Source of the DNA: Candidatus Omnitrophota bacterium
Lineage (GTDB): Bacteria > Omnitrophota > Gorgyraeia > Zapsychrales > Zapsychraceae
Reading direction: 5' to 3'
NCBI GenBank assembly: GCA_035292445.1
Contig: DATDQB010000024.1
Coordinates: 267 to 64,266 of the forward strand
Length of the DNA stretch: 64,000 bases
Shown: one piece after another, positions 6,001 through 58,525 of the stretch
Numbering within the stretch: position 1 is the first letter of the stretch
How the letters are laid out: each line of letters begins with the position of its first letter
The notes under the pieces: model-generated
The model's input: the letters and a program-made list of their open reading frames with translations, nothing else
Databases searched by the model: none
Told to the model about the DNA's origin: nothing
Translations under genes and position numbers: made by a program

Positions 6001-9000
6001 GTCATGAGTGAAACGAACATTAATTGGGATGATATTGGAGCGCTAACCACTTCTGGCATCAACTGGGGCGATATCAATATCATGAGCGATGCCGGCATTA
6101 ATTGGGCCGATATAGGCGAGCTCAGTGCCTCAGGCATCAACTGGTCGGATATCGAGGTCATAACCGAACAGGGCATCAACTGGTCTGATATCGGGGTCAT
6201 GAGCGATCAGGGCATCAACTGGAGCGATATCGGCGAGCTTTCAGCGGCCGGCATCAATTGGTCGGAGATCGGGGTTATGGCAGAGACTGGTATCAATTGG
6301 GATGACCTTCAGGCATTAAGTACATCAGGCATCAACTGGGATAACATCGGGGATCTCTCTACGGCTGGTATCAATTGGAGTGATATCAATATCATGAGCG
6401 ATGCTGGCATTAACTGGTCGGATATCGGCGTTATGTCCGATCAAGGCATTAACTGGTCAGATATCGGGGTCATGAGCGATCAGGGCATTAATTGGAGTGA
6501 TATCAATGTCATGAGTGAAGCCGGCATTAATTGGGCTGATATCGGAGAACTCAGTTCCTCGGGCATCAACTGGTCTGAAATCGGTGTTATGACCGAAGCC
6601 GGGGTCAATTGGGATGATATCAGCGCCTTAACCACCTCAGGCATCAATTGGGATGATCTGACGTTCATGACCGAAGCCGGTGTCAACTGGGATAACATCG
6701 GGGATCTCTCAACGGCTGGCGTTAACTGGGATAATATCACGGTGATGACGGAGGCCGGCATCAACTGGTCGGACATTGGCGTCATGACCGAGCAAGGCAT
6801 CAACTGGAGCGATATCGGCGAGCTTTCTTCCGCTGGCATCAATTGGAGCGATATCGGGGTCATGAGCGAAACGAATATCAATTGGGATGACCTTCAGGCA
6901 TTGAGTACGACCGGCATCAACTGGGATAATATCGGGGATCTCTCAACGGCCGGCGTTAACTGGGATAATATCACCGTGATGACGGAGGCCGGCATTAACT
7001 GGTCGGATATCGGGGTCATGTCTGACCAAGGCATCAACTGGAGCGATATCGGCGAGCTTTCAGCGGCCGGCATCAATTGGAGCGATATCGGGGTCATGAG
7101 CGAGACCAACATCAATTGGGATGATCTGACTTCCTTGACGGAAGCCGGCATCAATTGGTCGGATATCGGGGTCATGTCTGACCAAGGCATCAACTGGAGC
7201 GATATCGGCGAGCTTTCAGCGGCGGGTATTAACTGGTCTGATCTAAGGGTCATGGGTGATGCGAATATTAATTGGGACAATATCGGAGACCTATCAGCGG
7301 CCGGCATCAATTGGTCGGATATCGGGGTGATGAGCGAGACCAACATCAATTGGGATGACCTCCAGGCATTGAGTACGACCGGCATCAATTGGGATAATAT
7401 CGGGGACTTATCAAGTGCCGGCATCAATTGGGATAATATTGGGGATCTCTCAACGGCCGGTATTAACTGGGGCGATATTACAGTCATGAGTGAACAGGGC
7501 ATTAATTGGGCCGATATAGGAGAACTTAGTTCTTCAGGCATCAACTGGAGCGATATCGGGGTGATGACCGAGCAAGGCATCAACTGGAGCGATTTGACGG
7601 CCTTGACCGAGGCCGGCGTCAATTGGGATAATATCGGGGATCTTTCATCGGTCGGCATTAATTGGGATAATATTAGTGCTATGGCGACGGCCGGTATCAA
7701 TTGGGAAGACATTAGCGCCATGAGCGCCTCGGGTGTCAATTGGGACAGCATTGGCGAACTCTCGGTTGCTGATGTCAACTGGGATAACTTGAGCGAGCTT
7801 TCGGCAGCCGGCGTTAATTGGGATAATCTTAATGTCATGACCGAAGCGGGCATCAACTGGAGCGATATCGGCGCATTAAGTGCTGCGGGCGTGAATTGGG
7901 ATAGTATCGGCAATCTTTCGGCAGCAGGCATCAACTGGGATGATATCGGCGCCATGTCCGATCAAGGTATCAATTGGGCAGACATAGGTGTCCTGACCGA
8001 AGCCGGTATCAATTGGGATGATGTGGGAAGGATGAGCACGGTCGGCATCAATTGGGATGATATCCGGTCTTTAACGCAAGCCGGGATTGATTGGAGCAAT
8101 ATTCAGGAAATGACGGTAGCCGGTATCAATTGGGATGATATCAGCGATATGACGGCTGCGGGCATCAACTGGTCGGATATCGGGGTCATGGCGGCTCAGA
8201 ATATCAATTGGGAGGGCATCGATGTTTTAAGCGATGCCGGCATCAATTGGGAGGATATCGGGAACCTTTCCGAAGCCGGCATCAATTGGGAAGATATCGG
8301 CACCATGGCCGCCTCCGGCATCAACTGGGATGACCTTGAGGCCATGACCACCACCGGCATCAACTGGGATGATGTGGCCTTCATGACGGGTGCCGGCATC
8401 AATTGGAGCGATATGGGTGTTTCCACGACACAAGGCGTCAATTGGAGCGATCTTGCCTTTATGTCCAATGCCGGCGTCAATTGGGACGGCATTGCGTACC
8501 TGGCCGATAACGCCTCGACGCTCATTAGTAACGTCAACACGATCCTTACGACGATACAAAGCCTTGAGAGCATTATCGGAACATCCGCTGACTCGCTGGT
8601 GGATGGGACGCTATTCGGGACGATCAATGAGATCTTGTCTGTTGTCAACGGGCTGAGCCCGGCAGATATCACGGCGATCTTAGCGGCCGTGACGAATATC
8701 GAGGACTTGTTAGGAGTCCCGGGTGATGCGGCCAGCGAAGACACGGTATTCGGCGATCTTTTGCAGACCCAGGAATTCGTCGATACGCTGGAAACGCTTT
8801 TAGGCACGGCTACCGATGCTCCGGAGCTGGAGTCTGTTTTTGGCAAGTTGAACTTTATCTCGGATGCCGCCAACGATGCGGATAACAGTGCCGGAGCCGT
8901 CCTATCCATCGTCACTGAGCTCAGGGATGACGTAGGCGTCAATGGCCAGACACCCAAGCTGTATGACCTTATCCAAAATTTAGCTGTCGAATTGGAAGAT

Positions 9001-9267
9001 CTATCGGGGATCGTCGACAGCATTTCCGACAGTTCGCTCGATTCCAATGCCATTACAGAGGAGATCGTGTCTTTATTGACGGAATTGGTCAACAAGAGCG
9101 CCGAGGCGGCAGGCCTAGAGATGGAAGTCGAAGAATTGGGTCCGGGCGCGGACATGGAAGCAGTTAACGAACGGCTTTCAAAGATCGAGGCCATCCTGCA
9201 GGCCATCCAAGAATCCATTGTCGATGATAAGATATCGGTCAAGACTTACTTTGAAAGCGCTGGTTAG
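1..9267 (+). CDS. Giant acidic tandem-repeat protein, 5'-partial (open from nt 1, continues upstream). It has more than 215 copies of a 13-residue (39-nt) repeat with consensus x-G-I-N-W-x-D-I-G-V-M-x-x, then a ~270-aa non-repetitive acidic C-terminal domain
   Basis: Frame-1 ORF is open from nt 1 and in frame with the track ORF at 37. Strict 39-nt periodicity runs to about nt 8470. The non-repeat tail ends at TAG 9265-9267. All internal antisense and off-frame ORFs are repeat artefacts. Confidence 0.85.
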   Translation, partial: SSAGINWDEINTMTEAGINWSDIGVMTDQGINWSDIGVMSDSDINWTNIGDLSTAGINWDEINAMTEAGINWDNIGDLSTAGINWDDIEALTTAGINWTDINVLTQAGINWDDINAMTDAGINWSDIGVMSDEGINWSDIGVMSSSDINWTNISDLSSTGINWSDIGVMSDSDINWTNIGDLSTAGINWDEINTMTEAGINWSDIGVMTEQGINWSDIGVMSDSDINWSDIADMSSVGINWEDINALTEAGINWDNIEELSTAGVNWDGINDMTEAGINWDDISVLSEAGINWNDIDAMSEVGINWTNIGDLSTAGVNWSDIGVMSTRGINWDDIGVLTETGINWDNIGEMSDAGINWNEIGVMAEADINWDNISDLSTAGINWDEINAMTEAGINWSDIGVMTDQGINWSDIGVMSDSDINWSNIGDLSTAGINWDEINAMTEAGINWSDIGVMTDQGINWSDIGVMSDSDINWSNIGDLSTAGINWDEINAMTEAGINWDDLAFMSTQGINWSDIGVMSDQGINWSDIGDLSSAGINWDDIQELSTTGINWNDLDVMTEAGINWSDIGAMTEAGINWSDIGVMTDQGINWSDIGVMSDSDINWINIGDLSSAGINWDEINAMTEAGINWSDIGVMTDQGINWSDIGVMSGSDINWTNISDLSSAGINWGDITDLSEAGINWDNIGDLSSAGINWDEINAMTEAGINWSDIGVMTEQGINWSDIGVMTEQGINWSDIGVMSDSDINWSDIGVMSTSEINWTNIGDLSSAGINWDEIAVMAETGINWDDLDVMSDAGINWSDIGVMTEQGINWSDIGVMTEQGINWSDIGVMSTSDINWTNIGDLSTAGINWDEINAMTEAGINWSDIGVMTDQGINWSDIGVMSGSDINWINISDLSSAGINWDDIQELSTTGINWDEINAMTEAGINWSDIGVMTDQGINWSDIGVMSDQGINWSDIGVMSTSDINWINISDLSSAGINWDDIQELSTTGINWSDIGVMTDAGINWSDIGVMSDSDINWTDLSEMTSQGINWSDIGVMSDQGINWSDIEEMSTQGINWSDIGAMSTADINWTNIGDLSSAGINWDEIGVMAEAGVNWNDLTALTEAGINWSDIGVMSDQGINWSDIGVMSDQGINWSDIGAMSTADINWTNIGDLSSAGINWDEIGVMAEAGVNWNDLTALTEAGINWSDIGVMSESDINWSNIGDLSSAGINWNDITAMTEAGINWSDIGVMSDQGINWSDIGVMSDQGINWSDINVMSDQGINWSDIGVMSDSDINWSSIGDLSTAGINWDEITAMTEAGINWSDIGVMSEQGINWSDIGVMSDQGINWSDIGVMSDSDINWSDIGAMSTADINWTNIGDLSSADINWDEINAMTEAGINWSDIGVMTEQGINWSDIGVMSDSDINWSDIGVMSDSDINWSDIGAMSTADINWSNIGDLSSAGINWDEINTMTEAGINWSDIGVMTEQGINWSDIGVMSDSDINWSDIGVMSEQGINWSDIGVMSDSDINWSDIGVMSDQGINWSDIDIMSDQGINWSDIDIMSDQGINWSDIGVMSDQGINWSDIDIMSDQGINWSDIGVMSSQGVNWTSIGDLSTAGINWNDIDIMSDQGINWSDIGVMSGQGINWSDIGVMSSQGINWSDIDIMSDAGINWSDIDIMSDQGINWSDIGVMSSQGVNWTSIGDLSTAGINWNDIDIMSEQGINWSDIGVMSGQGINWSDIGVMSDSDINWTDLSEMTSQGINWSDMAEMTTADINWSDIGVMSDQGINWSDIGVMSETGINWSDIGEMTTSGINWDNIQDMTTTGINWDDIGAMASSGINWTDMAEMTTADINWSDIGVMSDQGINWSDIGIMSEAGINWSDIGEMSASGINWDNIGDMSTAGINWEDITVMTTRGINWDEIGVLSDAGVNWDNISDLSTAGVNWDGINDMTEANINWDNVAEMSTTGINWSDIGVMSESGINWGDINIMSDAGINWADIGELSASGINWSDIGVMSETNINWDDIGALTTSGINWGDINIMSDAGINWADIGELSASGINWSDIEVITEQGINWSDIGVMSDQGINWSDIGELSAAGINWSEIGVMAETGINWDDLQALSTSGINWDNIGDLSTAGINWSDINIMSDAGINWSDIGVMSDQGINWSDIGVMSDQGINWSDINVMSEAGINWADIGELSSSGINWSEIGVMTEAGVNWDDISALTTSGINWDDLTFMTEAGVNWDNIGDLSTAGVNWDNITVMTEAGINWSDIGVMTEQGINWSDIGELSSAGINWSDIGVMSETNINWDDLQALSTTGINWDNIGDLSTAGVNWDNITVMTEAGINWSDIGVMSDQGINWSDIGELSAAGINWSDIGVMSETNINWDDLTSLTEAGINWSDIGVMSDQGINWSDIGELSAAGINWSDLRVMGDANINWDNIGDLSAAGINWSDIGVMSETNINWDDLQALSTTGINWDNIGDLSSAGINWDNIGDLSTAGINWGDITVMSEQGINWADIGELSSSGINWSDIGVMTEQGINWSDLTALTEAGVNWDNIGDLSSVGINWDNISAMATAGINWEDISAMSASGVNWDSIGELSVADVNWDNLSELSAAGVNWDNLNVMTEAGINWSDIGALSAAGVNWDSIGNLSAAGINWDDIGAMSDQGINWADIGVLTEAGINWDDVGRMSTVGINWDDIRSLTQAGIDWSNIQEMTVAGINWDDISDMTAAGINWSDIGVMAAQNINWEGIDVLSDAGINWEDIGNLSEAGINWEDIGTMAASGINWDDLEAMTTTGINWDDVAFMTGAGINWSDMGVSTTQGVNWSDLAFMSNAGVNWDGIAYLADNASTLISNVNTILTTIQSLESIIGTSADSLVDGTLFGTINEILSVVNGLSPADITAILAAVTNIEDLLGVPGDAASEDTVFGDLLQTQEFVDTLETLLGTATDAPELESVFGKLNFISDAANDADNSAGAVLSIVTELRDDVGVNGQTPKLYDLIQNLAVELEDLSGIVDSISDSSLDSNAITEEIVSLLTELVNKSAEAAGLEMEVEELGPGADMEAVNERLSKIEAILQAIQESIVDDKISVKTYFESAG

Positions 9268-29097: not shown

Positions 29098-29502
29098 ATG
29101 ATAGGCGATAAACATCCGATCATTTTTTTTGACGGCATATGCGGGCTGTGTAACCGTTTTGTCGATTGGGTCATCAAAAGGGACCGTCAAAACATTTATT
29201 TTTTTGCGCCTATCCAAGGAGAGACCGCCAAAAGGTTTCTGACGCTCCTTCCGGAAGACATCAGCCAGTGGTCGATTATTTTTATTGACCATGAAGGCGT
29301 CCACCAGCGCTCAACGGCGGTGCTACGGATCTTGATCGGCCTGGGCGGATGTTGGAAAGCCATGAAAATTTTTATGCCGATGCCTATGGGTTGGCGGGAT
29401 GCTGCGTATAATTTCATTGCGCGCCGGCGCTACCGTTGGTTCGGAAAACGGGATTCCTGCCGCCTTCCTTCCGTTGAGGAGAAAGAACGGTTCCTCCCCT
29501 GA
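29098..29502 (+). CDS. DCC-family thiol-disulfide oxidoreductase (DUF393)
   Basis: IIFFDGICGLCNRFVDWV carries the DUF393 FDGxCxLC motif. Confidence 0.7.
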   Translation: MIGDKHPIIFFDGICGLCNRFVDWVIKRDRQNIYFFAPIQGETAKRFLTLLPEDISQWSIIFIDHEGVHQRSTAVLRILIGLGGCWKAMKIFMPMPMGWRDAAYNFIARRRYRWFGKRDSCRLPSVEEKERFLP

Positions 29503-29505
29503 TAT

Positions 29506-29536
29506 TTGTCCTAGTTTGTCCTATATTGTCCTAGTA
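29506..29536. repeat. Three direct copies of TTGTCCTA(G/T)
   Basis: tttgtcctag tttgtcctat attgtcctag directly after the DUF393 stop. Confidence 0.7.
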
Positions 29537-29755
29537 GCTATAAAATGAGGCTTTTTTTTAACATGTTGAGAGAATTAAACACGTTTTTTAACGTATCAAA
29601 ACACATTATTAAAAGAAAGTTCTCTCCGCACCAGTATGCTCAACACAACTTATTTCAAATGAATAGGTTATGTAGTTTTGTAATATAAGGGAATTTTTAA
29701 GGTGTTTTGGCATGGTTTTTGCTTATTATTGGCTTAGAAATAGGTACATTTAAGT

Positions 29756-29820
29756 TGTCATATTGTGTCCTATTATGTCCTATTATGTCATATTGACAGA
29801 AAATAAGTGTTGTCCTAATA
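29756..29820. repeat. Four more TGTC(C/A)TA copies overlapping the promoter of the PEP-CTERM gene
   Basis: tgtcatattgtgtcctattatgtcctattatgtcatattgacag...tgttgtcctaat. Confidence 0.7.
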
Positions 29821-29821
29821 T
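29793..29821 (+). promoter_or_regulatory. Consensus sigma-70 promoter (TTGACA-17nt-TAATAT) about 40 nt upstream of the PEP-CTERM gene
   Basis: TTGACA at 29793-29798, a 17-nt spacer, and TAATAT at 29816-29821. An RBS agggagaag precedes the ATG at 29862. Confidence 0.6.
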
Positions 29822-29861
29822 TTGATTCAATTCGTTCTATTAAAACAGGGAGAAGAAAAAA

Positions 29862-30578
29862 ATGAAAAAATTTATTTTATCAGTAATTGCTTTAACCGCT
29901 TGCCTTATTAGTTGGTCAACAAACGCACAAGCTGTGCAATATGATCTATCGCTTGTAACCGATTCGGACACTGATGGAACGGCTATTTTTACGCGTTTCG
30001 CTGAAGGCGGTCAAGGAACGGGCAATTTTGATTCATTTTTACGCGTCCAAGATACCCCACAGGAAGAAGGCTATAATACAGATGGAACGGTAGAATTCGA
30101 TACTAAAGATGATCCGCATACACATTCGATTGAGATCAGCGACATTCCGATCATTGATATTCTCGGCACTGATTATTATGAATTTGTGTTGGACGCTGCT
30201 GAGCCAGCTGGCAATACATTAGAGGTAACGGTTCTTGAAATCTATCTTCTGGGAGCTCCGAATATTACTGATTATGCAACTTGGAGCTCATTAAATACTC
30301 CAAAATATGAGCTAGCTAGCGGCGATTCAATCTTAATTGATAACATCACAGGAAATGGCGTTGCCGATTTATTCGTGTACGTCCCGACCAGCTTATTTAC
30401 TGGTACTAATACTTGGGTATATCTTTATACCGAAATGATTGTCACAGCAGGCTCGTTCGAAGAATGGGGCAGAAGGACTGGTATCGGTGATGTTCCGCCA
30501 GTCATTCCTGAACCGATGAGCATGATCCTTTTTGGAACCGGTTTAGTCGGGATTATAGTCAGAAAAAAGCTTTCATAA
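29862..30578 (+). CDS. Secreted PEP-CTERM-anchored protein (exosortase substrate), AT-rich gene
   Basis: Signal peptide. C-terminus VIPEPMSMILFGTGLVGIIVRKKLS has the PEP motif, a TM helix and a basic tail. Codon usage is visibly AT-richer than in neighbouring genes. Confidence 0.7.
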   Translation: MKKFILSVIALTACLISWSTNAQAVQYDLSLVTDSDTDGTAIFTRFAEGGQGTGNFDSFLRVQDTPQEEGYNTDGTVEFDTKDDPHTHSIEISDIPIIDILGTDYYEFVLDAAEPAGNTLEVTVLEIYLLGAPNITDYATWSSLNTPKYELASGDSILIDNITGNGVADLFVYVPTSLFTGTNTWVYLYTEMIVTAGSFEEWGRRTGIGDVPPVIPEPMSMILFGTGLVGIIVRKKLS

Positions 30579-31595: not shown

Positions 31596-31839
31596 AATGG
31601 GCTTAAGGAAACGAAATTGGCTTTTTGGCACACGATATTCTATACTTAAAATGAGACGTAAAAAGCAATTTGACGATAAGGGCAAACCAGGAGTAATCCT
31701 GGGACGCAAAACTATCCCGACGTTTTCTCAGAACGAATTAAGAGGAAGTCGGGACCCCGACCGAAGCGTCGGGGCAGGGTCCTTAAACAAGGATAGCCAG
31801 GTGCCGAATCAAATGTTAAGAAAGATCACATATGAGATG

Positions 31840-31869: not shown

Positions 31870-32289
31870 ATGGGTAATGATATGAAAAGGATCATGAAGA
31901 GAATCAGGCAAAGAAGTGGCGCTTCGATGGTCGAGGTCATGGTCGCGGTAGGCGTCATGGTCATCGTTTTTGCGGGGCTTCTGCAGGTATTCTTATACAG
32001 CTCGGTCCTTGGGGAGATGTCGGGCAATATTACAACCGCGGTCAGCGCGGCCCAAAGCCAGTTAGAGGAGATCCGCGGGCATGAATTTGATGACATCACG
32101 ACCGATTATGGCGTAAGCGGCACGCCCGGAGATACCTTTAGTGTGGGAATGAACGGCGGCGCGGGTGCGATCACTATTACATCTGTTGAGACAAATTTGT
32201 TGCAGGTTCAAGTGACGGTCAGCTGGACCGAGAAAAACGGCCGCGCGATGTCGACCAGCATGACCAGCTTGTTGGCTAAACGAAATTAA
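31870..32289 (+). CDS. Prepilin-type N-terminal cleavage/methylation domain protein (pilin-like)
   Basis: RSGASMVEVMVAVGVMVIVFAGL leader/helix motif. Confidence 0.6.
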   Translation: MGNDMKRIMKRIRQRSGASMVEVMVAVGVMVIVFAGLLQVFLYSSVLGEMSGNITTAVSAAQSQLEEIRGHEFDDITTDYGVSGTPGDTFSVGMNGGAGAITITSVETNLLQVQVTVSWTEKNGRAMSTSMTSLLAKRN

Positions 32290-37249: not shown

Positions 37250-37322
37250 TGGGCCATGCAGGACTCGAACCTGCCACCCAGTGATTAAGAGTCACTTGCT
37301 CTACCAGATGAGCTAATGGCCC
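37250..37322 (-). tRNA. tRNA-Lys (anticodon CTT)
   Basis: The reverse complement folds as a cloverleaf: acceptor GGGCCAT/ATGGCCC, D stem GCTC/GAGC, anticodon stem AGTGA/TCACT with loop CTCTTAA, T loop TTCGAGT. No encoded CCA. Confidence 0.85.
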
Positions 37323-37370
37323 GGAGGGTGATATTTATAACAAACTTTAAGGACGCTGTAAAGACATTTA

Positions 37371-37400
37371 AGCAGTAAGTCGTAAGCGGTAAGCGGTAAG
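37371..37400. repeat. Left arm (GTAAGC-unit tandem) of the inverted repeat flanking the four-helix-bundle gene
   Basis: agcagtaagtcgtaagcggtaagcggtaag. Complementary to 37826-37857 (cgcttactacttactgcttacagcttattgct). Confidence 0.7.
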
Positions 37401-37458
37401 TTTTTTAAAAAAAGGTTCATCCCCCTCATAAACAAGAATAAATAAACAGGAGGGGAAA

Positions 37459-37824
37459 ATGAAAGTAAAAACGTTTCAAGATTTGGTTGTTTGGCAAAAA
37501 GCACATGCATTTGTTTTAGAAGTGTATAAATTGACGAGACAATTTCCAGAGGAAGAACGGTTTGGGGTAACTACTCAGGTGCGCAGATCATCTGTTTCAA
37601 TTTGCGCAAATATAGTTGAAGGCTATAAAAAGAGCGATAGAGAGTTTTTAAGGTTTTTAGATATATCCCAAGCCTCGTTAGAAGAAACAAAATATCATTT
37701 AATTTTAAGTAAGGACTTAGGGTACTGTTTGCACAATACGTTCAATGAATTAACGGAAATATGTGATGAGTTGGGTAGAATGATAAATGGATTAATGAGA
37801 GCAATTAGAGCAAGCAAAACTTAA
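37459..37824 (+). CDS. Four-helix-bundle protein (TIGR02436 family, formerly called 23S rRNA intervening-sequence protein)
   Basis: LVVWQKAHAFVLEVYKLTRQFPEEERFGVTTQVRRSSVSICANIVEGYKK is the family signature. The gene is AT-rich and sits inside an inverted-repeat hairpin. Confidence 0.8.
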   Translation: MKVKTFQDLVVWQKAHAFVLEVYKLTRQFPEEERFGVTTQVRRSSVSICANIVEGYKKSDREFLRFLDISQASLEETKYHLILSKDLGYCLHNTFNELTEICDELGRMINGLMRAIRASKT

Positions 37825-37825
37825 C

Positions 37826-37857
37826 GCTTACTACTTACTGCTTACAGCTTATTGCTC
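37826..37857. repeat. Right arm of the inverted repeat flanking the four-helix-bundle gene
   Basis: See the left arm at 37371-37400. Confidence 0.7.
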
Positions 37858-37877: not shown

Positions 37878-38693
37878 ATGGCTTCTATTAATATTGAGGA
37901 GTTTAAAAGTTTAGCCAAAGATTTCCGTAAACAAATCCTCGAAGTGACGCATGCCGCCGGAAGCGGCCATCCCGGAGGTTCCCTCTCGGCCGTTGAAATT
38001 CTTATAAGCTTATATGGCTATAAAATGAAACATAATCCCAAAGATCCAACCTGGGATGATCGGGACCGGCTGATCATCTCCAAAGGCCATTGCACACCGG
38101 TGGCGTATGTAACCTTAGCCAACTATGGGTATTTCCCCAAAGAGGAACTGAAAAGTTTCAGGAAATTAGGCAGCCGTTTGCAGGGCCATGTTCATATTTA
38201 TGCACCGGGGATTGAATTTAATACGGGTTCGTTGGGGCATGGTTTATCGGTTGCCAATGGCTGTGCGCTGGGCGCACGCCTGCGTCAAAAGAATTTCAAA
38301 GTCTATTGTCTGTTGGGCGACGGGGAATTGCAGGAAGGCTCCGTTTGGGAGGCGGCGATGAACGCGTCTCACCAGAAATTGGATAATATTTGCGCTATTG
38401 TCGATTACAACAAAGTCCAGCAGAACGGGCCCGTCAATGAGATCAAAAATTTGGAACCATTGGCGAAGCGTTGGGAAAGTTTCGGTTGGGAAGTGGAAGA
38501 GATCGATGGCCACGATTTCAATCAGCTTATGAAAGCGTTGGATAAATTCGATTCGGTTAAAGGCAAGCCTTATATGATCATCGCCAATACCTTAAAAGGC
38601 AAGGGCGTTTCGTTTATGGAATTGAATCCGGCGTGGCATGGCAAGGCGCCGAATGATGAAGAATTAAAGAAAGCGTTGGCGGAATTGAAATAA
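37878..38693 (+). CDS. Transketolase, N-terminal (thiamine-diphosphate-binding) subunit of a split enzyme
   Basis: HAAGSGHPGGSLS, GHCTP, GSLGHGLS, LLGDGELQEGSVWEA. Confidence 0.9.
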   Translation: MASINIEEFKSLAKDFRKQILEVTHAAGSGHPGGSLSAVEILISLYGYKMKHNPKDPTWDDRDRLIISKGHCTPVAYVTLANYGYFPKEELKSFRKLGSRLQGHVHIYAPGIEFNTGSLGHGLSVANGCALGARLRQKNFKVYCLLGDGELQEGSVWEAAMNASHQKLDNICAIVDYNKVQQNGPVNEIKNLEPLAKRWESFGWEVEEIDGHDFNQLMKALDKFDSVKGKPYMIIANTLKGKGVSFMELNPAWHGKAPNDEELKKALAELK

Positions 38694-38696
38694 CAA

Positions 38697-38759
38697 TGTA
38701 GGGGCGGGCCTTGCGTCCGCCCAGAAGATATTGGGCAACCGCAAGGGGTTGCCCCTACA
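38697..38759 (+). ncRNA. Structured intergenic element: 9-bp outer stem enclosing two GC-rich hairpins (three-way junction) between the transketolase halves
   Basis: tgtaggggc[gggcgg-gccttgcgt-ccgccc]agaagatatt[gggcaacc-gcaagg-ggttgccc]ctaca. Outer stem tgtaggggc/gcccctaca. Confidence 0.45.
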
Positions 38760-38781
38760 ATATTTCATCTAGGAGAATATT

Positions 38782-41850: not shown

Positions 41851-43326
41851 ATGGACCCTTGGCGTCATTTAAAAAACCTTAATAAAAGCCAAATCACCGA
41901 GCTTCAGAATAAGAAGCTGCGCGATTTTATCCGCCACTACGTTTATCCCTTCAGCCCTCATTACAGAAAAATTTTTGATGACAATAAGATCGATCCGGAA
42001 TCTATCAAGACAGCCGATGATCTAAGGCGCGTCCCGTTCATTTCAAAGAAGGATTTCCTGGAGAATGAAACAAAATTCCGCGATTGCGTTTTGCAACCCG
42101 ATGCCCAGAAGATCAAAAAATTTTGGAACGCCTCGCGCCTGACCAAGTTCATTTTTGAAAGAACTTTTAAAGGGAAAGAGTACGTTGAGCATAAACTCGG
42201 CTTTGAATTCCGCCCTGTTTTCATGACCTTCACCGGCGGCACGACCAACCAGCCCGTTGTGTTCCTTTATACCAATTACGACATCCAGAACCTGCATACC
42301 TCCGGCGCCCGGATGGTGAATTTATTCGACATCAAACCGGATGAAAGGATCGTCAATATATTCCCTTACGCGCCGCATCTGGCCTTTTGGCAGGTCGTCT
42401 TCGGCGCCTTCGCTTCCAACGTCATGGCGCTCAGTACCGGCGGCGGAAAGACCATCGGCACCGAGGGCAACATCAAAGCGCTTTTGAGGATGAAGCCCAG
42501 CGTCGTCATGGGCGTCCCCAGTTATGTTTATCACGTCTTTCGCACGGCGCGCGAGCAGGGATGCAAAATGGATTTTGTCAAAAAGGTCGTTTTGGGGGCC
42601 GCGCGGGTGACGGTCGCTTTCAAGCAAAAGTTGGCCGAGATCATAGAAGGGATGGGGGCCAGGGACGTTGCCATTTTCGGGACGTACGGCTTTACGGAAG
42701 CGCGTTGCGCTTGGGCGGAAAGCCCATCGCCGTTGGATGTCTCAAGCGGGTATCATCTTTACCCGGACAAAGAGATCTTCGAGGTGATCGACCCTGAGAC
42801 AGGAGAGGTCAAGAAAGAAGGCGAAGACGGAGAATTGGTATATACGGGGCTCGATGCCCGCGGCAGCGTGATGTTGCGTTATCGCACGGGGGACTTTGTC
42901 AAAGGCGGGATCACCTACGCCCCGTCAAAATATTCCCGTTTAAGCGTTCCGCGCATTTCAAGCGACATCACCCGGTTATCCGATGTCAAGGACCTGCAGT
43001 TCTCCAAAGTCAAAGGGGCTCTTATGAATTTCAGCGTTTTTCCCGCTTTGTTCTCGGAGATCAAAGCGATCGATGAATGGCAGATCGAGCTTAAGAAAAG
43101 GAACAATGACCCCTTTGATATGGATGAAATGGTCATTTACGCCACCATCAAGAACCATAACAACCCGGACAAGTTGAAAGAGGAAATTAAAAGCAGGATG
43201 GTGGCGGTGACGGAAGTATCGCCCAATGAGATCCATTTCATCGGCATGGATGAGATGGTGAAGCGCCTGGAGCTTGAGACCGCGAATAAGGAAAGAAGGA
43301 TTTTGGATAACAGGCCGAAGTCGTGA
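41851..43326 (+). CDS. Adenylate-forming enzyme, phenylacetate-CoA ligase (PaaK) / coenzyme F390 synthetase-like family
   Basis: FTGGTTNQPVVF (variant of the AMP-binding TSGTTGxP motif), YGFTEA, PaaK-like length. The track ORF starts at 41767, but its first 28 codons lie in the AT-rich repeat region, so I used ATG 41851. Confidence 0.65.
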   Translation: MDPWRHLKNLNKSQITELQNKKLRDFIRHYVYPFSPHYRKIFDDNKIDPESIKTADDLRRVPFISKKDFLENETKFRDCVLQPDAQKIKKFWNASRLTKFIFERTFKGKEYVEHKLGFEFRPVFMTFTGGTTNQPVVFLYTNYDIQNLHTSGARMVNLFDIKPDERIVNIFPYAPHLAFWQVVFGAFASNVMALSTGGGKTIGTEGNIKALLRMKPSVVMGVPSYVYHVFRTAREQGCKMDFVKKVVLGAARVTVAFKQKLAEIIEGMGARDVAIFGTYGFTEARCAWAESPSPLDVSSGYHLYPDKEIFEVIDPETGEVKKEGEDGELVYTGLDARGSVMLRYRTGDFVKGGITYAPSKYSRLSVPRISSDITRLSDVKDLQFSKVKGALMNFSVFPALFSEIKAIDEWQIELKKRNNDPFDMDEMVIYATIKNHNNPDKLKEEIKSRMVAVTEVSPNEIHFIGMDEMVKRLELETANKERRILDNRPKS

Positions 43327-43392
43327 ATCGTGGATCGTAGATCGCGAATCGTGGATCTTTGACGAACCACGATCCACAATGCACGATCCACG
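43327..43392. repeat. Intergenic inverted repeat built from CGTGGATC units, no cargo
   Basis: atcgtggatcgtagatcgcgaatcgtggatc ... gaaccacgatccacaatgcacgatccacga. Confidence 0.7.
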
Positions 43393-43405
43393 AGAAGGAT
43401 AAATT

Positions 43406-44692: not shown

Positions 44693-44708
44693 AAAAGGAG
44701 TATCGAGT

Positions 44709-44775
44709 CGTAAGCCATAAGCTGTAAGCCTTAAAAAAAATTTAAAGCTTACGGCTTAAAGCTTACGGCTTAAGG
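44709..44775. repeat. Intergenic inverted repeat built from GTAAGC/GCTTAC units, no cargo
   Basis: cgtaagccataagctgtaagcc-ttaaaaaaaatttaaa-gcttacggcttaaagcttacggcttaagg. Confidence 0.7.
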
Positions 44776-50671: not shown

Positions 50672-50680
50672 AGATAATCA

Positions 50681-50761
50681 AGTCATCAGTCATCAGCCGT
50701 CAGTCTTCAGAAGTTATCGGGCTGACAGTTTCTGACGACTGAAGACTGAAGACGGACGACT
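50681..50761. repeat. Intergenic inverted repeat built from GTCATCAG/GTCTTCAG units, no cargo
   Basis: agtcatcagtcatcagccgtcagtcttcag ... ctgacgactgaagactgaagacggacgac. Confidence 0.65.
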
Positions 50762-50767
50762 TTAACA

Positions 50768-54578: not shown

Positions 54579-54667
54579 GGTTCGACGCGCTTCGCTTGCT
54601 CACCATTGGATTATATGTCGAACCACCCTGAGCGAGTCTCGCTTTCAGCGAGACGAGTCGAAGGGTC
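54579..54667. repeat. Intergenic repeat element, copy 2 (short form)
   Basis: ggttcgacgcgcttcgcttgctcaccattggattatatgtcgaaccaccctgagcgagtctcgctttcagcgagacgagtcgaagggtc, with internal stems ggttcgac/gtcgaacc and tctcgct/agcgaga. Confidence 0.55.
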
Positions 54668-54701
54668 TTGCGCTGTTTCCAATAGTATTAATATTTATAT
54701 T

Positions 54702-56747
54702 ATGAAATTCAATAAACCAATCCGTGCCGGTACCCGCGGTAGCCTCCTCGCCCTTAAGCAGGTTGAAGAAATCATACGTCTGGTGTCTGTCCCCCCGTCT
54801 GTCCCCTTTAAAGTGGTTATTTTCGATACCAACGGTGATAAAGACAAAAAGACGCCCTTGACCGCACAGCTGCCCGATGATTTCTTCACCGATACGCTTG
54901 ATCAAGCCCTTTTAAAAAGAAAAATTGATGTCGCTGTCCATAGCGCCAAAGACCTGCCCCAAACGCTCGCCGAAGGCTTGTCCATTTTTGCGTTGACTGA
55001 ATCGGTGGATGACAGGGACGCTTTTGTGGGAGTCGTTCCCTTTAAAAAGCTTAAGGCGGGTTCCCGCGTCGGTACCAGCAGCCCCTTGCGCCAAAAAAGC
55101 GTGGAAGAATTGAACCCAAAGATAAACGCGGTCAGTATCCGCGGCACAATTGATGAGCGGCTGGCTCAATTTGATAAAGGTAAACTTGACGGTATCATCG
55201 TCGCGGCGTGCGCGCTTAAGCGTTTAGGCCTTAGCAAACGGATAACAGAAATTATGCCCTGGGAAGCGACACCCTTGCAGGGCCAATTGGCTGTTGTCGG
55301 AAGAAGCGATGACGCACATCTTCAAGAGATGTTTTCCTCGATCGATGCGCGGGCGCATTACGGGAAAGTGTATTTGGTCGGCGCCGGCCCGGGCGACAGC
55401 GAGCTCATCACGCTCAAGGGCATCAACGCTCTTAAGCAGGCGGATGTTGTTTTTTACGACTATCTGATCAATAAAGAACTTTTGCGGCATGCCCAAAAGG
55501 CCCAGAAAATTTATGTCGGCAAACGAAAGGGAGCGCATACCCTACCTCAAAGCGAGCTTAATAAGCTCATCAAGGATAAGGCAGTGGCCGGCAAGAGCGT
55601 TGTCCGCCTCAAAGGAGGCGATCCGCTTGTTTTCGGCCGCGGCGGCGATGAGATCGGTTATTTAAGAAGCTATCATATCGAAGTTGAGGTCGTCCCGGGC
55701 GTGAGCTCCGCGACCGGCATCCCTTCGGGACTGGGTATTCCTTTGACCGCGCGCGGGGTGAGCGATTCGGTCGCCTTCGTAAGCGGCCACAGCGAAGGGG
55801 AGTCCCAAGGAAAAAAAAAGAGGATACAGATCCCCAAGGCGCAAACGCTTATTTTTTTGATGGGGCTTACGAAACTTAAAGAAATCGTTGCACAATTGAC
55901 GCGCCAGGGGTGGAAGAAGCAAACGCCTGTCATCGTTGTTTCCAAGGGGACATTCCCCGATGAAAGGATCGTTGCCGGCTCACTGGAGGACATCATTAAG
56001 AAAACAAAGAGCGAAAAATTACTGCCGCCGGCTTTGATCATGGTGGGGGAAACCATCCATTCTTACCGTCCCCGCCAAAAGAGGTCCAAAACGGTCCTTT
56101 ATACCGGCACCAACCCGCAAAAATACAAACGCCTGGGCAAGCTTGTCCATCTTCCCATGATCGAGATCACCCCGGTTGAATTCACAAGAAACAAGAGGAT
56201 CTCTTTTCTCAAAGCGTTTCAGGCCTCCGATATGGTCCTTTTAACGAGCCGCTTCGCGGTGCGCTTTCTTTTTGATATATTGAAAAAAGAAAGGATTGGT
56301 GCGCGATCGCTGCAGGATAAGCCATTTATCACGATCGGCCGGGAAACGGCCCGCGAGCTCATCGGCCACGGCATTACACCAGAGTTGACAGCTCAGGAGG
56401 AATCGAGTGTCGGCTTGTGGAAGGAGATGAGAAAGAAATATCAGCTTAACGGTAAACGTATCCTTTTTCCGCGCTCGGCGCTTCCCAATCCTTATTTGAA
56501 GCAAGCGTTACGCAAAGCTGGTGCTATCGTTAAAGAAATAACGGTTTACCAGAATCGAATGCCAAAAAAACGTAAATTGCCCCGCGTTTCAATTGATGAG
56601 GTCATCTTCACAAGCCCATCGACGGTCAATAATTTCCTTAAAAGTTACGGGACGATCCCACGTATATGGAGGATCAAAAGCCGGGGGGAGCTCACGAGGC
56701 GAAGTTTAGAAAAGGCGGGGTTTGAGAGTGAAATTATCAAGTATTAA
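54702..56747 (+). CDS. Tetrapyrrole biosynthesis fusion: HemC-like N-domains (porphobilinogen deaminase domains 1-2, no domain 3), uroporphyrinogen-III C-methyltransferase (CobA/SUMT), then uroporphyrinogen-III synthase (HemD)
   Basis: The track ORF starts at 54606 inside the repeat element, so I used ATG 54702 (MKFNKPIRAGTRGSLLALKQ, the HemC N-terminus). Then AVHSAKDLP, SIRGTIDERL, VYLVGAGPGD...GGDPLVFGRGGDE (SUMT), and a HemD-like C-terminal 240 aa. Confidence 0.75.
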   Translation: MKFNKPIRAGTRGSLLALKQVEEIIRLVSVPPSVPFKVVIFDTNGDKDKKTPLTAQLPDDFFTDTLDQALLKRKIDVAVHSAKDLPQTLAEGLSIFALTESVDDRDAFVGVVPFKKLKAGSRVGTSSPLRQKSVEELNPKINAVSIRGTIDERLAQFDKGKLDGIIVAACALKRLGLSKRITEIMPWEATPLQGQLAVVGRSDDAHLQEMFSSIDARAHYGKVYLVGAGPGDSELITLKGINALKQADVVFYDYLINKELLRHAQKAQKIYVGKRKGAHTLPQSELNKLIKDKAVAGKSVVRLKGGDPLVFGRGGDEIGYLRSYHIEVEVVPGVSSATGIPSGLGIPLTARGVSDSVAFVSGHSEGESQGKKKRIQIPKAQTLIFLMGLTKLKEIVAQLTRQGWKKQTPVIVVSKGTFPDERIVAGSLEDIIKKTKSEKLLPPALIMVGETIHSYRPRQKRSKTVLYTGTNPQKYKRLGKLVHLPMIEITPVEFTRNKRISFLKAFQASDMVLLTSRFAVRFLFDILKKERIGARSLQDKPFITIGRETARELIGHGITPELTAQEESSVGLWKEMRKKYQLNGKRILFPRSALPNPYLKQALRKAGAIVKEITVYQNRMPKKRKLPRVSIDEVIFTSPSTVNNFLKSYGTIPRIWRIKSRGELTRRSLEKAGFESEIIKY

Positions 56748-56803
56748 GATACAAGACACAAGAAACAAGGCCCAAGGAAGAAACAAAAACCAAATAACAA
56801 TTA
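56748..56803. repeat. Left arm of a ~55-bp inverted repeat (ACAAGAAACAAG units) flanking the second four-helix-bundle gene
   Basis: gatacaagacacaagaaacaagg...acaaaaaccaaataacaatt. Complementary to 57181-57243. Confidence 0.7.
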
Positions 56804-56819
56804 ACAATTAACGAAAGGG

Positions 56820-57179
56820 ATGGTTGCGATGGAACGGAAATTTGATTTGGAAGAAAGGACAACGAATTTTGCGAAAGGCGTGATTCAATTATGCAGGGAA
56901 TTACCAAGGGACCCGATTAATGATCGTTTGATGGGGCAGGTTGTTGGTTCAGCTGGTTCAGTAGGAGCTAATTATAGAGAGGCTAATGATGCATTGGGAA
57001 AGAAAGATTTTTTACAGAAAATCAAGATTGCGCGTAGGGAAGCCAAAGAAACGCAGCATTGGTTAACTTTGATCGCTGAGGCGAATGCAGCAAAAAGAAC
57101 TACAATAGTTCCTTTAATAGACGAAGTTGTGGAACTTAAGAAAATTCTATCATCAATAGCTATTAAATTAGAAAAATAA
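56820..57179 (+). CDS. Four-helix-bundle protein (TIGR02436 family), second copy
   Basis: NFAKGVIQLCRELPRD...GSAGSVGANYREANDALGKKDFLQKIKIARREAKETQHWL. AT-rich and inside an inverted-repeat hairpin. Confidence 0.8.
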   Translation: MVAMERKFDLEERTTNFAKGVIQLCRELPRDPINDRLMGQVVGSAGSVGANYREANDALGKKDFLQKIKIARREAKETQHWLTLIAEANAAKRTTIVPLIDEVVELKKILSSIAIKLEK

Positions 57180-57180
57180 G

Positions 57181-57243
57181 ATTATATTTGGTTATTGGTT
57201 TTTGTAATTTTCTTGTATCTTGTTTCTTGTATCTTGTTTCTTA
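57181..57243. repeat. Right arm of the inverted repeat flanking the second four-helix-bundle gene
   Basis: attatatttggttattggtttttgtaattttcttgtatcttgtttcttgtatcttgtttctt. Confidence 0.7.
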
Positions 57244-57247
57244 GAAT

Positions 57248-58525
57248 ATGAAAACTATAAAATCCGAACAACTATTTAATGAGGCCACGAAGTATTTGGT
57301 GGGTGGCGTGAACTCTCCCGTGCGTTCTTTTAAGGGCGTGGGCGGGCATCCTTTGATCATGAGAGCAGGCGAGAAGGCAACCCTTTTTGACGCCGATAAC
57401 AATAGCTACACGGATTATTGCCTTTCGTGGGGCGCTTTGATCCTCGGCCATGCCCACCGGAACATTGTTTTGAACGCGAAAAAAACGATTGAGCGCGGCT
57501 CAAGTTTCGGCACAACCACCCGTTACGAGATCGACCTGGCCAGAGCGATCATCGAGCGCATCCCGTCCATTGACCTTATCCGTTTTGTCAACTCAGGCAC
57601 CGAAGCGACAATGAGCGCCATCCGCTTGGCGCGCGGGTTCACCAAACGCGATATGTTGGTCAAGTTCGACGGCTGCTACCACGGCCACTTTGACGATCTA
57701 TTGGCCAAGGCCGGAAGCGGGGTGGCGCAGCTGAAAGAGTCATCCAGTTTAGGGATCCCTAAAACGCATATCGAAAACACGCTCAGTTTACCGTATAATG
57801 ACACCAACGCTTTGGCGCAAACGCTTGAGAAATACAAAGAAAAGATCGCCTGCGTCATTATCGAGCCTGTGGCCGGCAACATGGGCGTCATTAAAGCCGA
57901 AAAGGATTTTCTAAAAACGTTAAGGGACCTGACCAAAAAATTCGGCATCGTTCTTATTTTTGATGAGGTCATGACGGGTTTTCGCGCATCAGCCAATTGT
58001 GTCCAGGGAGAATACAACATTATTCCTGACATGACGTGCCTGGGCAAGATCATCGGCGGCGGGTTTCCCGTTGGCGCGTACGGCGGCAGGAAGGACATCA
58101 TGGAACACCTCGCCCCTTTAGGCGGGGTCTACCAGGCCGGGACGTTCTCGGGAAATCCCATGGTCATGAAAGCCGGGCTTGAAACGTTAAAATTGTTGAC
58201 CAAGGAATTTTACAGATCGCTCAATCAACGCTGCGAAAGCATGGCGCAGGAAGTGAACGAGGCGTTCAAGAAAGGCGGCGTTGACGCCCATCTGGCGCAT
58301 TTTCATTCGATGATGAGCGTGCGTTTCCGTAAAGAAGCGGTTCATAATTATCAGGACGCGCAGGATGCCTCCGGCGGGGAAAAGTACCAGAAACTGTTCC
58401 ATCACATGCTTAACGCCGGCATTTACCTGCCGCCGGCGGACCTGGAAGCGTTTTTTATAAGCGGGATGCACACGCCAGCAGATCTTAAGAAACTCGCGCA
58501 GGAGCTCAAGAAGTTCTTTGCTTAA
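57248..58525 (+). CDS. hemL: Glutamate-1-semialdehyde 2,1-aminomutase
   Basis: YLVGGVNSPVRSF, class III aminotransferase fold, PLP lysine region. Confidence 0.9.
   Translation: MKTIKSEQLFNEATKYLVGGVNSPVRSFKGVGGHPLIMRAGEKATLFDADNNSYTDYCLSWGALILGHAHRNIVLNAKKTIERGSSFGTTTRYEIDLARAIIERIPSIDLIRFVNSGTEATMSAIRLARGFTKRDMLVKFDGCYHGHFDDLLAKAGSGVAQLKESSSLGIPKTHIENTLSLPYNDTNALAQTLEKYKEKIACVIIEPVAGNMGVIKAEKDFLKTLRDLTKKFGIVLIFDEVMTGFRASANCVQGEYNIIPDMTCLGKIIGGGFPVGAYGGRKDIMEHLAPLGGVYQAGTFSGNPMVMKAGLETLKLLTKEFYRSLNQRCESMAQEVNEAFKKGGVDAHLAHFHSMMSVRFRKEAVHNYQDAQDASGGEKYQKLFHHMLNAGIYLPPADLEAFFISGMHTPADLKKLAQELKKFFA

Follow-up and report, generated by a model that had tools for sequence, protein, structure and literature searches.

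A four-helix-bundle gene between heptamer-repeat arms in a haem-operon spacer of Candidatus Omnitrophota: a probable IVS-type cassette outside rRNA

The stretch of DNA analysed here (64,000 nt, hereafter the window) comes from a Candidatus Omnitrophota bacterium and contains a haem-biosynthesis operon in which a small additional gene separates two host cistrons; all features given with coordinates in this text lie on the plus strand. The upstream host gene, hemC-cobA-hemD (54606–56747), encodes a fused porphobilinogen deaminase/uroporphyrinogen methyltransferase/uroporphyrinogen-III synthase (Porphobil_deam, TP_methylase and HEM4 domains in a profile search). The downstream host gene, hemL (57248–58525), encodes glutamate-1-semialdehyde aminomutase and matches the class-III aminotransferase profile. 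Between them, and read in the direction of the operon, lies a TIGR02436/PF05635 four-helix-bundle gene (56829–57179, 116 amino acids) enclosed by two complementary arms; the gene and its arms are referred to below as cassette 2. The ORF of the cassette spans 56820–57179 (119 amino acids), opening at an alternative upstream ATG (56820), and the database protein begins at the second ATG, 56829. A purine-rich candidate ribosome-binding site, GAAAGGG (56813–56819), can be read between the left arm and the coding sequence, about 9 nt before ATG 56829.

The left (5′) arm (56745–56798; extended arm 56734–56803) is an A/C-rich run of tandem units of about 7 nt (AAGATAC, AAGACAC, AAGAAAC, AAGGCCC, AAGGAAG, AAACAAA, AACCAAA, TAAC...), and the right (3′) arm (57191–57243; extended arm 57185–57254) is a T/G-rich heptamer array (...GTTATTG, GTTTTTG, TAATTTT, CTTGTAT, CTTGTTT, CTTGTAT, CTTGTTT, CTTA). 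The TAA stop codon of hemC-cobA-hemD provides the first three bases of the left arm, which ends about 25 nt before ATG 56829; the right arm begins 11 nt past the stop codon of the four-helix-bundle gene and finishes 4 nt upstream of the hemL ATG (57248). Since the arms thus reach from the upstream stop codon almost to the start of hemL, the whole intercistronic spacer has been replaced by the element. The GC content is 0.36 for the cassette and 0.38 for its coding sequence, against 0.49 for the window, and the 601 bases from 56700 to 57300 are identical across four independent assemblies; the sequencing run SRR3989295 also contains the locus.

The complementarity of the arms is far above what their composition would give. 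An inverted-repeat search paired 56734–56803 with 57185–57254 (70 nt, 74% complementary), and Smith–Waterman alignment gave the core arms, 56745–56798 and 57191–57243, a score of 56, which was reached by none of 1000 dinucleotide shuffles (maximum 39; z = 9.2). The energy of the arm duplex is −55.5 kcal/mol, compared with −24.7 ± 4.3 in the shuffles. When 56730–57260 is folded as RNA, the outer stem joining the two distant arms appears in the MFE structure (MFE −131.5, z = −4.18) and in the centroid structure alike. The original prediction of an AT-rich TIGR02436 gene held within complementary, pairing arms of about 55 bp between hemC-cobA-hemD and hemL is therefore borne out. Its description of the arms has to be amended: the repeat unit, given there as ACAAGAAACAAG, is in fact the heptamer ACAAGAN/NTCTTGT, and the segments quoted as the outer parts of the arms are really the inner, loop-proximal ones.

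The protein encoded by cassette 2 matches the TIGR02436 profile (E = 6e-22, 77.9 bits, cutoff 24) and the PF05635 profile, 23S_rRNA_IVP (E = 1e-17, 64.7 bits, cutoff 33.8). Its AF2 monomer model has four helices and a pLDDT of 94.6. Using this model, Foldseek retrieved BT_0352 (PDB entry 2rld; TM 0.81), which phmmer also matches to the sequence (E = 2e-12), XCC0516 (PDB entry 2gsc; TM 0.82–0.85) and Avd (PDB entries 4dwl and 8ube; TM 0.75). PADLOC returned no match for the four-helix-bundle protein, and the only PHROG annotation is ‘Avd’. Among the relatives of cassette 2, pN is 0.19–0.27 with pS saturated. The protein is therefore under strong purifying selection and is clearly functional.

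We then considered the junction in related genomes. At the hemCD–hemL junction of the Omnitrophota relatives compared, the cassette is absent: in one relative (L162) a gap of 8 nt separates hemL from the fused hemCD gene, and in three others hemB stands between the two genes. Two of these three (L163 and L164) carry a gene-less heptamer hairpin in the hemB–hemL spacer, with other repeat units again. None of the HemL homologues exceeds 74% identity to the HemL of the window and no exact empty site was found among them, so the comparison is one of family-level synteny. On this synteny, together with the low GC content and the occurrence of proteins about 70% identical elsewhere, the presence of cassette 2 at this junction is best read as an insertion rather than as an ancestral state. 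Such proteins of about 70% identity occur in records whose source names are Omnitrophota, Margulisiibacteriota, Dehalococcoidales and Chlamydiota. An Rfam scan of the window found no rRNA, and cassette 2 does not lie inside a 23S or 16S rRNA helix.

A second cassette of this kind is present in the window. Cassette 1 (37369–37851), which was located through its low GC content, lies between a minus-strand tRNA gene and the gene for a transketolase N-subunit. Its arms (37369–37404 and 37816–37851; z = 11.7) are of the GTAAGCG type, with the left units TAAGCAG, TAAGTCG, TAAGCGG and TAAGCGG, and they enclose a TIGR02436 gene (37459–37824, 121 amino acids) whose product is also bAvd-like. The profile matches of this protein are stronger (TIGR02436, E = 5e-38, 129.6 bits; PF05635, 133.7 bits), and the region folds like cassette 2. 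The two proteins are only 24% identical, and a tblastn search of the window with the cassette 2 protein did not detect the paralogue.

In addition, a lag-7 scan combined with folding of the intergenic spacers revealed three hairpins without a gene (MFE values taken along the window in sliding segments of 110 nt were too noisy for hairpin detection). The first (43319–43395; units CGTGGAT/ATCCACG, z = −4.24) has a loop of about 9 nt and lies between the genes for an AMP-binding enzyme and a thiolase. The second (44705–44775; units GTAAGCC/GCTTACG, z = −7.79) lies between the thiolase gene and an enoyl-CoA hydratase/3-hydroxyacyl-CoA dehydrogenase gene, and its units resemble the arms of cassette 1. 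The third (50680–50765; units CAGTCAT/CTGAAGA, z = −3.78) is flanked by the genes for an acyl-CoA dehydrogenase and a patatin/cNMP-binding protein. All three have loops of about 5–11 nt and each occupies a spacer in a co-directional β-oxidation gene cluster.

The architecture is general among homologous genes. Two families of 80 loci each, 160 in all and drawn from many phyla, were assembled, family 1 from species-representative genomes with the cassette 2 protein and family 2 from metagenomes with the cassette 1 protein, and the 150 nt upstream of each gene were compared with the 150 nt downstream, arms being called significant at z > 5. Flanking inverted repeats above this threshold were found at 52 of 74 loci in family 1 and 31 of 61 in family 2 (83 of 135 when pooled), compared with 12 of 219 neighbouring control ORFs; significant arms within 150 nt are missing at roughly one quarter to one half of the homologous genes. 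A period of 7 is the best lag for 43 of 53 left and 47 of 53 right arms in family 1, and for 20 of 27 and 21 of 27 arms in family 2. The upstream neighbour is co-directional at 66 of 73 and 50 of 57 loci in the two families (about 90%). The arms adjoin the neighbouring stop and start codons (about 0–17 nt), with median distances from the upstream stop codon to the left arm of 14 and −1 nt in the two families and about 16 nt from the right arm to the next start codon. These junction distances use local-alignment boundaries; those given by RNAduplex over the 150-nt flanks over-extend and were therefore dropped for this purpose. An Rfam scan of 20 related loci placed one of them between 5S and 23S and none within an rRNA gene.

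At these loci, other pairs of arms 350–450 nt apart mostly enclose a further four-helix-bundle gene or its remnant, including decayed copies that are frameshifted (L094) or truncated (L110); the exceptions are two loci (L119 and L121) in which the arms seemingly belong to adjacent hairpins on either side of ordinary genes. Candidatus Velamenicoccus archaeovorus LiM has two such cassettes, which lie near 0.985 and 1.792 Mb of NZ_CP019384.1. A search of 2.9 million viral contigs gave one weak match to the family, and a phage vehicle is thus unsupported. Searches of the open-access literature brought up no account of heptamer-armed S23p/TIGR02436 cassettes in places other than rRNA.

The arms belong to the element and are inherited together with the gene as a discrete unit with defined ends. 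We aligned the arms of cassette 2 with those of ten relatives (from Planctomycetia, Omnitrophota, Parcubacteria, Saccharibacteria, Yanofskybacteria and Velamenicoccus). CAA in the left arm and TTG in the right arm recur without exception at intervals of 7 nt, and beyond the outer ends of the arms the similarity is lost. The mean pairwise identity is 0.67–0.71 for the arms, compared with 0.43 for third codon positions and 0.37–0.38 for the flanks. Moreover, in both families the arms are the more alike the more alike the proteins are (Mantel test, 0 of 300 permutations). It is this combination, namely arms that align across phyla, follow the protein, lose their similarity at the arm ends and, as described next, pair better within their own locus than with other loci, that makes arms and gene one unit. 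The sequence of the arms is constrained, as its conservation exceeds that of synonymous sites. The arms of a pair also co-vary: the best partner of a left arm is its own right arm at 9 of 76 and 23 of 64 loci (about 1 expected by chance), and the mean pairing score is higher with the arm of the same locus than with that of another (35.9 versus 25.9, and 30.8 versus 16.5 in the second set). G·U pairs outnumber A·C mismatches in the arms by 64 to 38 in family 2 and by 96 to 81 in family 1, a weak bias of the kind that would point to selection on the sense RNA.

This bears on a further point of the original prediction, which had noted that the repeat units of the two cassettes are not the same, as is indeed the case (ACAAGAN type in cassette 2, GTAAGCG type in cassette 1), and had taken the difference as an argument for insertion or selection directed by structure. 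One part of this idea stands, in that complementarity is kept despite the divergence of the arms, as seen in the own-arm pairing. The other part, a hairpin serving as a structure-defined target with its sequence irrelevant, does not agree with arms that are so much more alike than their flanks and that follow the protein. The two cassettes differ in their units because they represent two deeply diverged sub-families of a single type of element, each with its own arms.

The unit of arms and gene appears to spread horizontally. Cassette 2 carries terminal inverted repeats, as transposons and MITEs do. We looked for a target-site duplication and for a mobility enzyme. The longest word shared by the two outer flanks has a mean length of 3.10, compared with 3.04 ± 0.10 after permutation, the arm ends being fuzzy; the four-helix-bundle ORF is the only ORF of the cassette, and neither it nor the adjoining genes encode a mobility enzyme. 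As neither was found, it is from its distribution that we call the element mobile.

Taken together, these results lead us to propose, with a probability of roughly 0.6, that 56745–57243 is a self-contained selfish cassette of the IVS type residing in the mRNA spacer of a haem operon, with a stem that is probably processed by RNase III. Folding of the RNA and RNase III cleavage of the stem are what we infer from the homologous elements of rRNA and from analogous systems. Cassette 2 would be transcribed by read-through from hemC-cobA-hemD, with no promoter of its own; promoter-like and terminator-like sites in the cassette show no excess over chance, and the prevalence of co-directional upstream neighbours speaks for such dependence on the host. 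The 5′ arm is A/C-rich (A+C or A+G being the alphabets of arms on this side) and should be unable to pair with itself, which would favour the long-range duplex: we propose that it stays open until the U/G-rich 3′ arm has been made. The arms may then form an imperfect duplex of about 55 bp, so that the start of hemL comes to lie beside the end of the cistron before it. RNase III would cut this duplex, much as rRNA IVSs are excised by it from the precursor RNA with no religation, and release a loop carrying the four-helix-bundle mRNA. Such a cleavage would separate the two host cistrons, and we suggest that the insertion is tolerated for this reason; cutting a polycistronic mRNA might damage hemL expression instead of being neutral. 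The protein itself would be an Avd/S23p-like, probably pentameric, nucleic-acid-binding bundle serving the maintenance or spread of the element, and it may recognize the arms through their CAA at every 7 nt.

We may wonder whether the arms act as DNA rather than as RNA, that is, as single-stranded hairpins or cruciforms recognized for transposition in the manner of REP/RAYT, IS200/IS605 ends or integron attC sites, the RNA stem being a by-product. The discrete ends of the element and its spread across phyla would fit such a role, as would the gene-less hairpins, which resemble MITE-type derivatives, the symmetry of the complementarity, which holds on both strands, and the near absence of a G·U-over-A·C bias in family 1. 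Yet no transposase, integrase or RAYT-like gene is present in the cassette or in the genes on either side, no target-site duplication signal is seen, a DNA-only role does not need the strong co-orientation with host genes, and RNase III has been proven to cleave the stem of the homologous rRNA IVS (PMC4990558). We therefore consider this explanation unlikely, although less so than the alternatives that follow.

Alternatively, the heptamer hairpins could be regulators of host operon spacers (mRNA stabilizers, processing sites or translational couplers), with the four-helix-bundle gene as a passenger landing in their loops, which is the structure-directed insertion of the original prediction. 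Three other spacers of the window are indeed filled by gene-less hairpins, those of L163 and L164 lie just upstream of hemL with different units, and rRNA IVSs are likewise found at helix tips (10.1101/2024.02.27.582315). However, the arms travel with the gene, following the protein phylogeny with an identity of 0.67–0.71 against 0.37 in the flanks; the arm pairs 350–450 nt apart that are not placed around ordinary host genes all held a four-helix-bundle gene or its remnant; and the unit types of empty hairpins recur as cassette arms (for example at L091, L093 and L101). This makes a host origin of the hairpins distinctly improbable.

The similarity to Avd raises the question of whether the gene is the accessory component of a diversity-generating retroelement (DGR) and the repeats are related to a template/variable-repeat pair. 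The cassette 1 protein matches the bAvd-like profile PF22296 (E = 5.5e-12) and the PHROG entry ‘Avd protein of DGR’, and the fold resemblance noted above (4dwl/8ube, TM 0.75) points the same way. We nevertheless reject this assignment, which has very little chance of being correct: no reverse transcriptase lies beside either cassette, where the neighbours are haem genes, a carbamoyltransferase gene, a tRNA gene and a transketolase subunit gene; the DGR Avd equivalog profile NF033474 reaches only 39.2 bits for cassette 1 (cutoff 80) and does not match cassette 2; the repeats consist of heptamer arrays in inverted orientation and do not form a template/variable repeat pair of about 100 nt; and viral contigs are nearly devoid of the family. 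Finally, chance complementarity of low-complexity AT-rich spacers, or an assembly artefact, is refuted, for although the arms are of low complexity and rich in A or T, no shuffle attains their score, the architecture recurs at homologous loci far more often than at control ORFs and the sequence is the same in the independent assemblies.

If the reading of cassette 2 as an IVS-type element is adopted, a broader and much more tentative picture can be drawn. The 23S rRNA IVSs would be the rRNA-resident minority of a class of transposase-less cassettes that spans phyla and lies mainly in operon spacers; the protein would recognize the periodic CAA/TTG (or AGGAG-type) arms and drive propagation or RNA processing; and the gene-less hairpins would be MITE-like derivatives, the two forms jointly shaping the processing of operon mRNAs. 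IVSs have been in the literature since 1990, and their build in rRNA is already known; what we describe here is a probable IVS-type cassette outside rRNA, with an architecture that is general in the loci examined. Should such cassettes reside mostly in mRNA spacers, the rRNA cases would mark one particular place at which a more general element lands. The sequence constraint on the heptamer arms suggests a binding partner, and the origin and mobility of IVSs and the role of S23p become experimentally approachable. Heptamer-repeat hairpins, moreover, recur without annotation in the operon spacers of Omnitrophota and of the other uncultured-lineage loci examined, where they could influence gene calling and the modelling of operon expression.

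Cassette 2 can be compared with several known systems. Its protein shares a homologous fold with Avd (PDB entries 4DWL and 8UBE), in a family of small, basic, nucleic-acid-associated proteins; unlike the systems in which Avd operates, the cassettes have no reverse transcriptase or template/variable repeats nearby, and the match to the Avd HMM is below its cutoff. With REP/BIME elements and MITEs, they have in common short imperfect palindromes in the spacers of co-directional operons, gene-less copies beside gene-carrying ones, many copies per genome and family-specific sequences. They differ from these elements in having arms of tandem heptamers instead of a fixed palindrome, a four-helix bundle as cargo instead of a transposase and no detected target-site duplication. 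In Haemophilus influenzae, the hmw1 mRNA forms a hairpin with a tandem heptamer array as its left arm; RNase III cleaves this hairpin, and the processing affects downstream expression (PMC12721329). The heptamer-array arm within an mRNA is a shared feature, but the hmw1 hairpin has a single repeat arm, the other being G-rich, and its loop contains no gene; it is a phase-variation device of the 5′-UTR, whereas cassette 2 would be a transferable cassette.

With the S23p-carrying 23S rRNA IVSs of Coxiella burnetii and Leptospira, cassette 2 shares a length of about 430–500 nt and a PF05635 ORF (PMC4990558). The IVS of Coxiella measures 428–444 nt, is closed by a terminal stem of 28 bp and contains an ORF of the S23p family, with two or three GACAGAT heptamers in tandem immediately ahead of its ATG, their copy number differing among strains (PMC4990558); cassette 2 likewise has tandem heptamers in its 5′ arm ahead of the ORF. 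The GC content of the Coxiella IVS is 36%, compared with 42.5% for the genome (PMC4990558), and that of cassette 2 is also below its host's; both have a patchy, horizontal-looking distribution. On the other hand, cassette 2 lies between protein-coding cistrons, co-oriented with them and not within an rRNA gene, while rRNA IVSs are located at the tips of rRNA helices (10.1101/2024.02.27.582315). Its arms are longer, with a heptamer array of about 54 nt against the 28-bp stem of Coxiella, and strong purifying selection acts on its protein, while the ORF of Coxiella is in decay and apparently unexpressed. Like those of the rRNA IVSs, the terminal inverted repeats of cassette 2 are predicted to form a long stem around the whole ORF, and RNase III, which has been proven to excise the Coxiella IVS with cleavage at the first repeat (PMC4990558), would by analogy cut this stem as well.

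Three hairpins built of tandem heptamers without a gene are located in the window (43319-43395, 44705-44775 and 50680-50765), where they occupy the intergenic spacers of a cluster of co-directional beta-oxidation genes. The heptamer unit differs in each of them, and the same unit types are seen in the arms of four-helix-bundle cassettes from other metagenomes. Gene-less hairpins of heptamer type, with units of 7-8 nt, are also present in the hemB-hemL spacer of two Omnitrophota relatives (L163, 2880-2985, and L164, 2905-2995, each in the coordinates of its own locus), at the counterpart of the cassette position in the window.

Decayed cassettes are found at two other loci: the four-helix-bundle gene is frameshifted in one (L094, 277-693) and truncated to about 86 codons in the other (L110, 1633-2062), and in both the heptamer arms still flank the decayed gene. 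A single metagenome contig (L102) carries three four-helix-bundle cassettes (3001-3330, 4519-5001 and 5757-6189) within about 3.2 kb, each with separate heptamer arms. At a further locus (L052, 2825-4046), two rRNA genes of the opposite strand, 5S and 23S, flank the four-helix-bundle gene (2983-3339); of the 20 scanned loci, no other was linked to rRNA.

Cassette 1, the second such element of the window, has its left arm 46 nt from a tRNA gene (37250-37322). With this minus-strand tRNA gene on that side, the cassette has no co-directional protein gene before it. The genes for the N and C subunits of transketolase are separated by a strong G+C-rich hairpin (38693-38780; -44 kcal/mol) that is devoid of heptamer periodicity.

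The window also contains a 3076-residue ORF (37-9267) with near-identical internal DNA repeats (for example, at 3921-4770), which give rise to strong hairpins predicted within its coding sequence. A very AT-rich spacer (29491-29873; GC content of about 0.29) bears at both ends several copies of a repeat of about 10 nt of the TTGTCCTA(T/G) type; this spacer may represent an array of operators or some other kind of repeat element. Finally, a c-di-GMP-I riboswitch aptamer (31671-31730; Rfam RF01051, 41.5 bits compared with a gathering score of 35) is located upstream of an ORF at 31870-32289.
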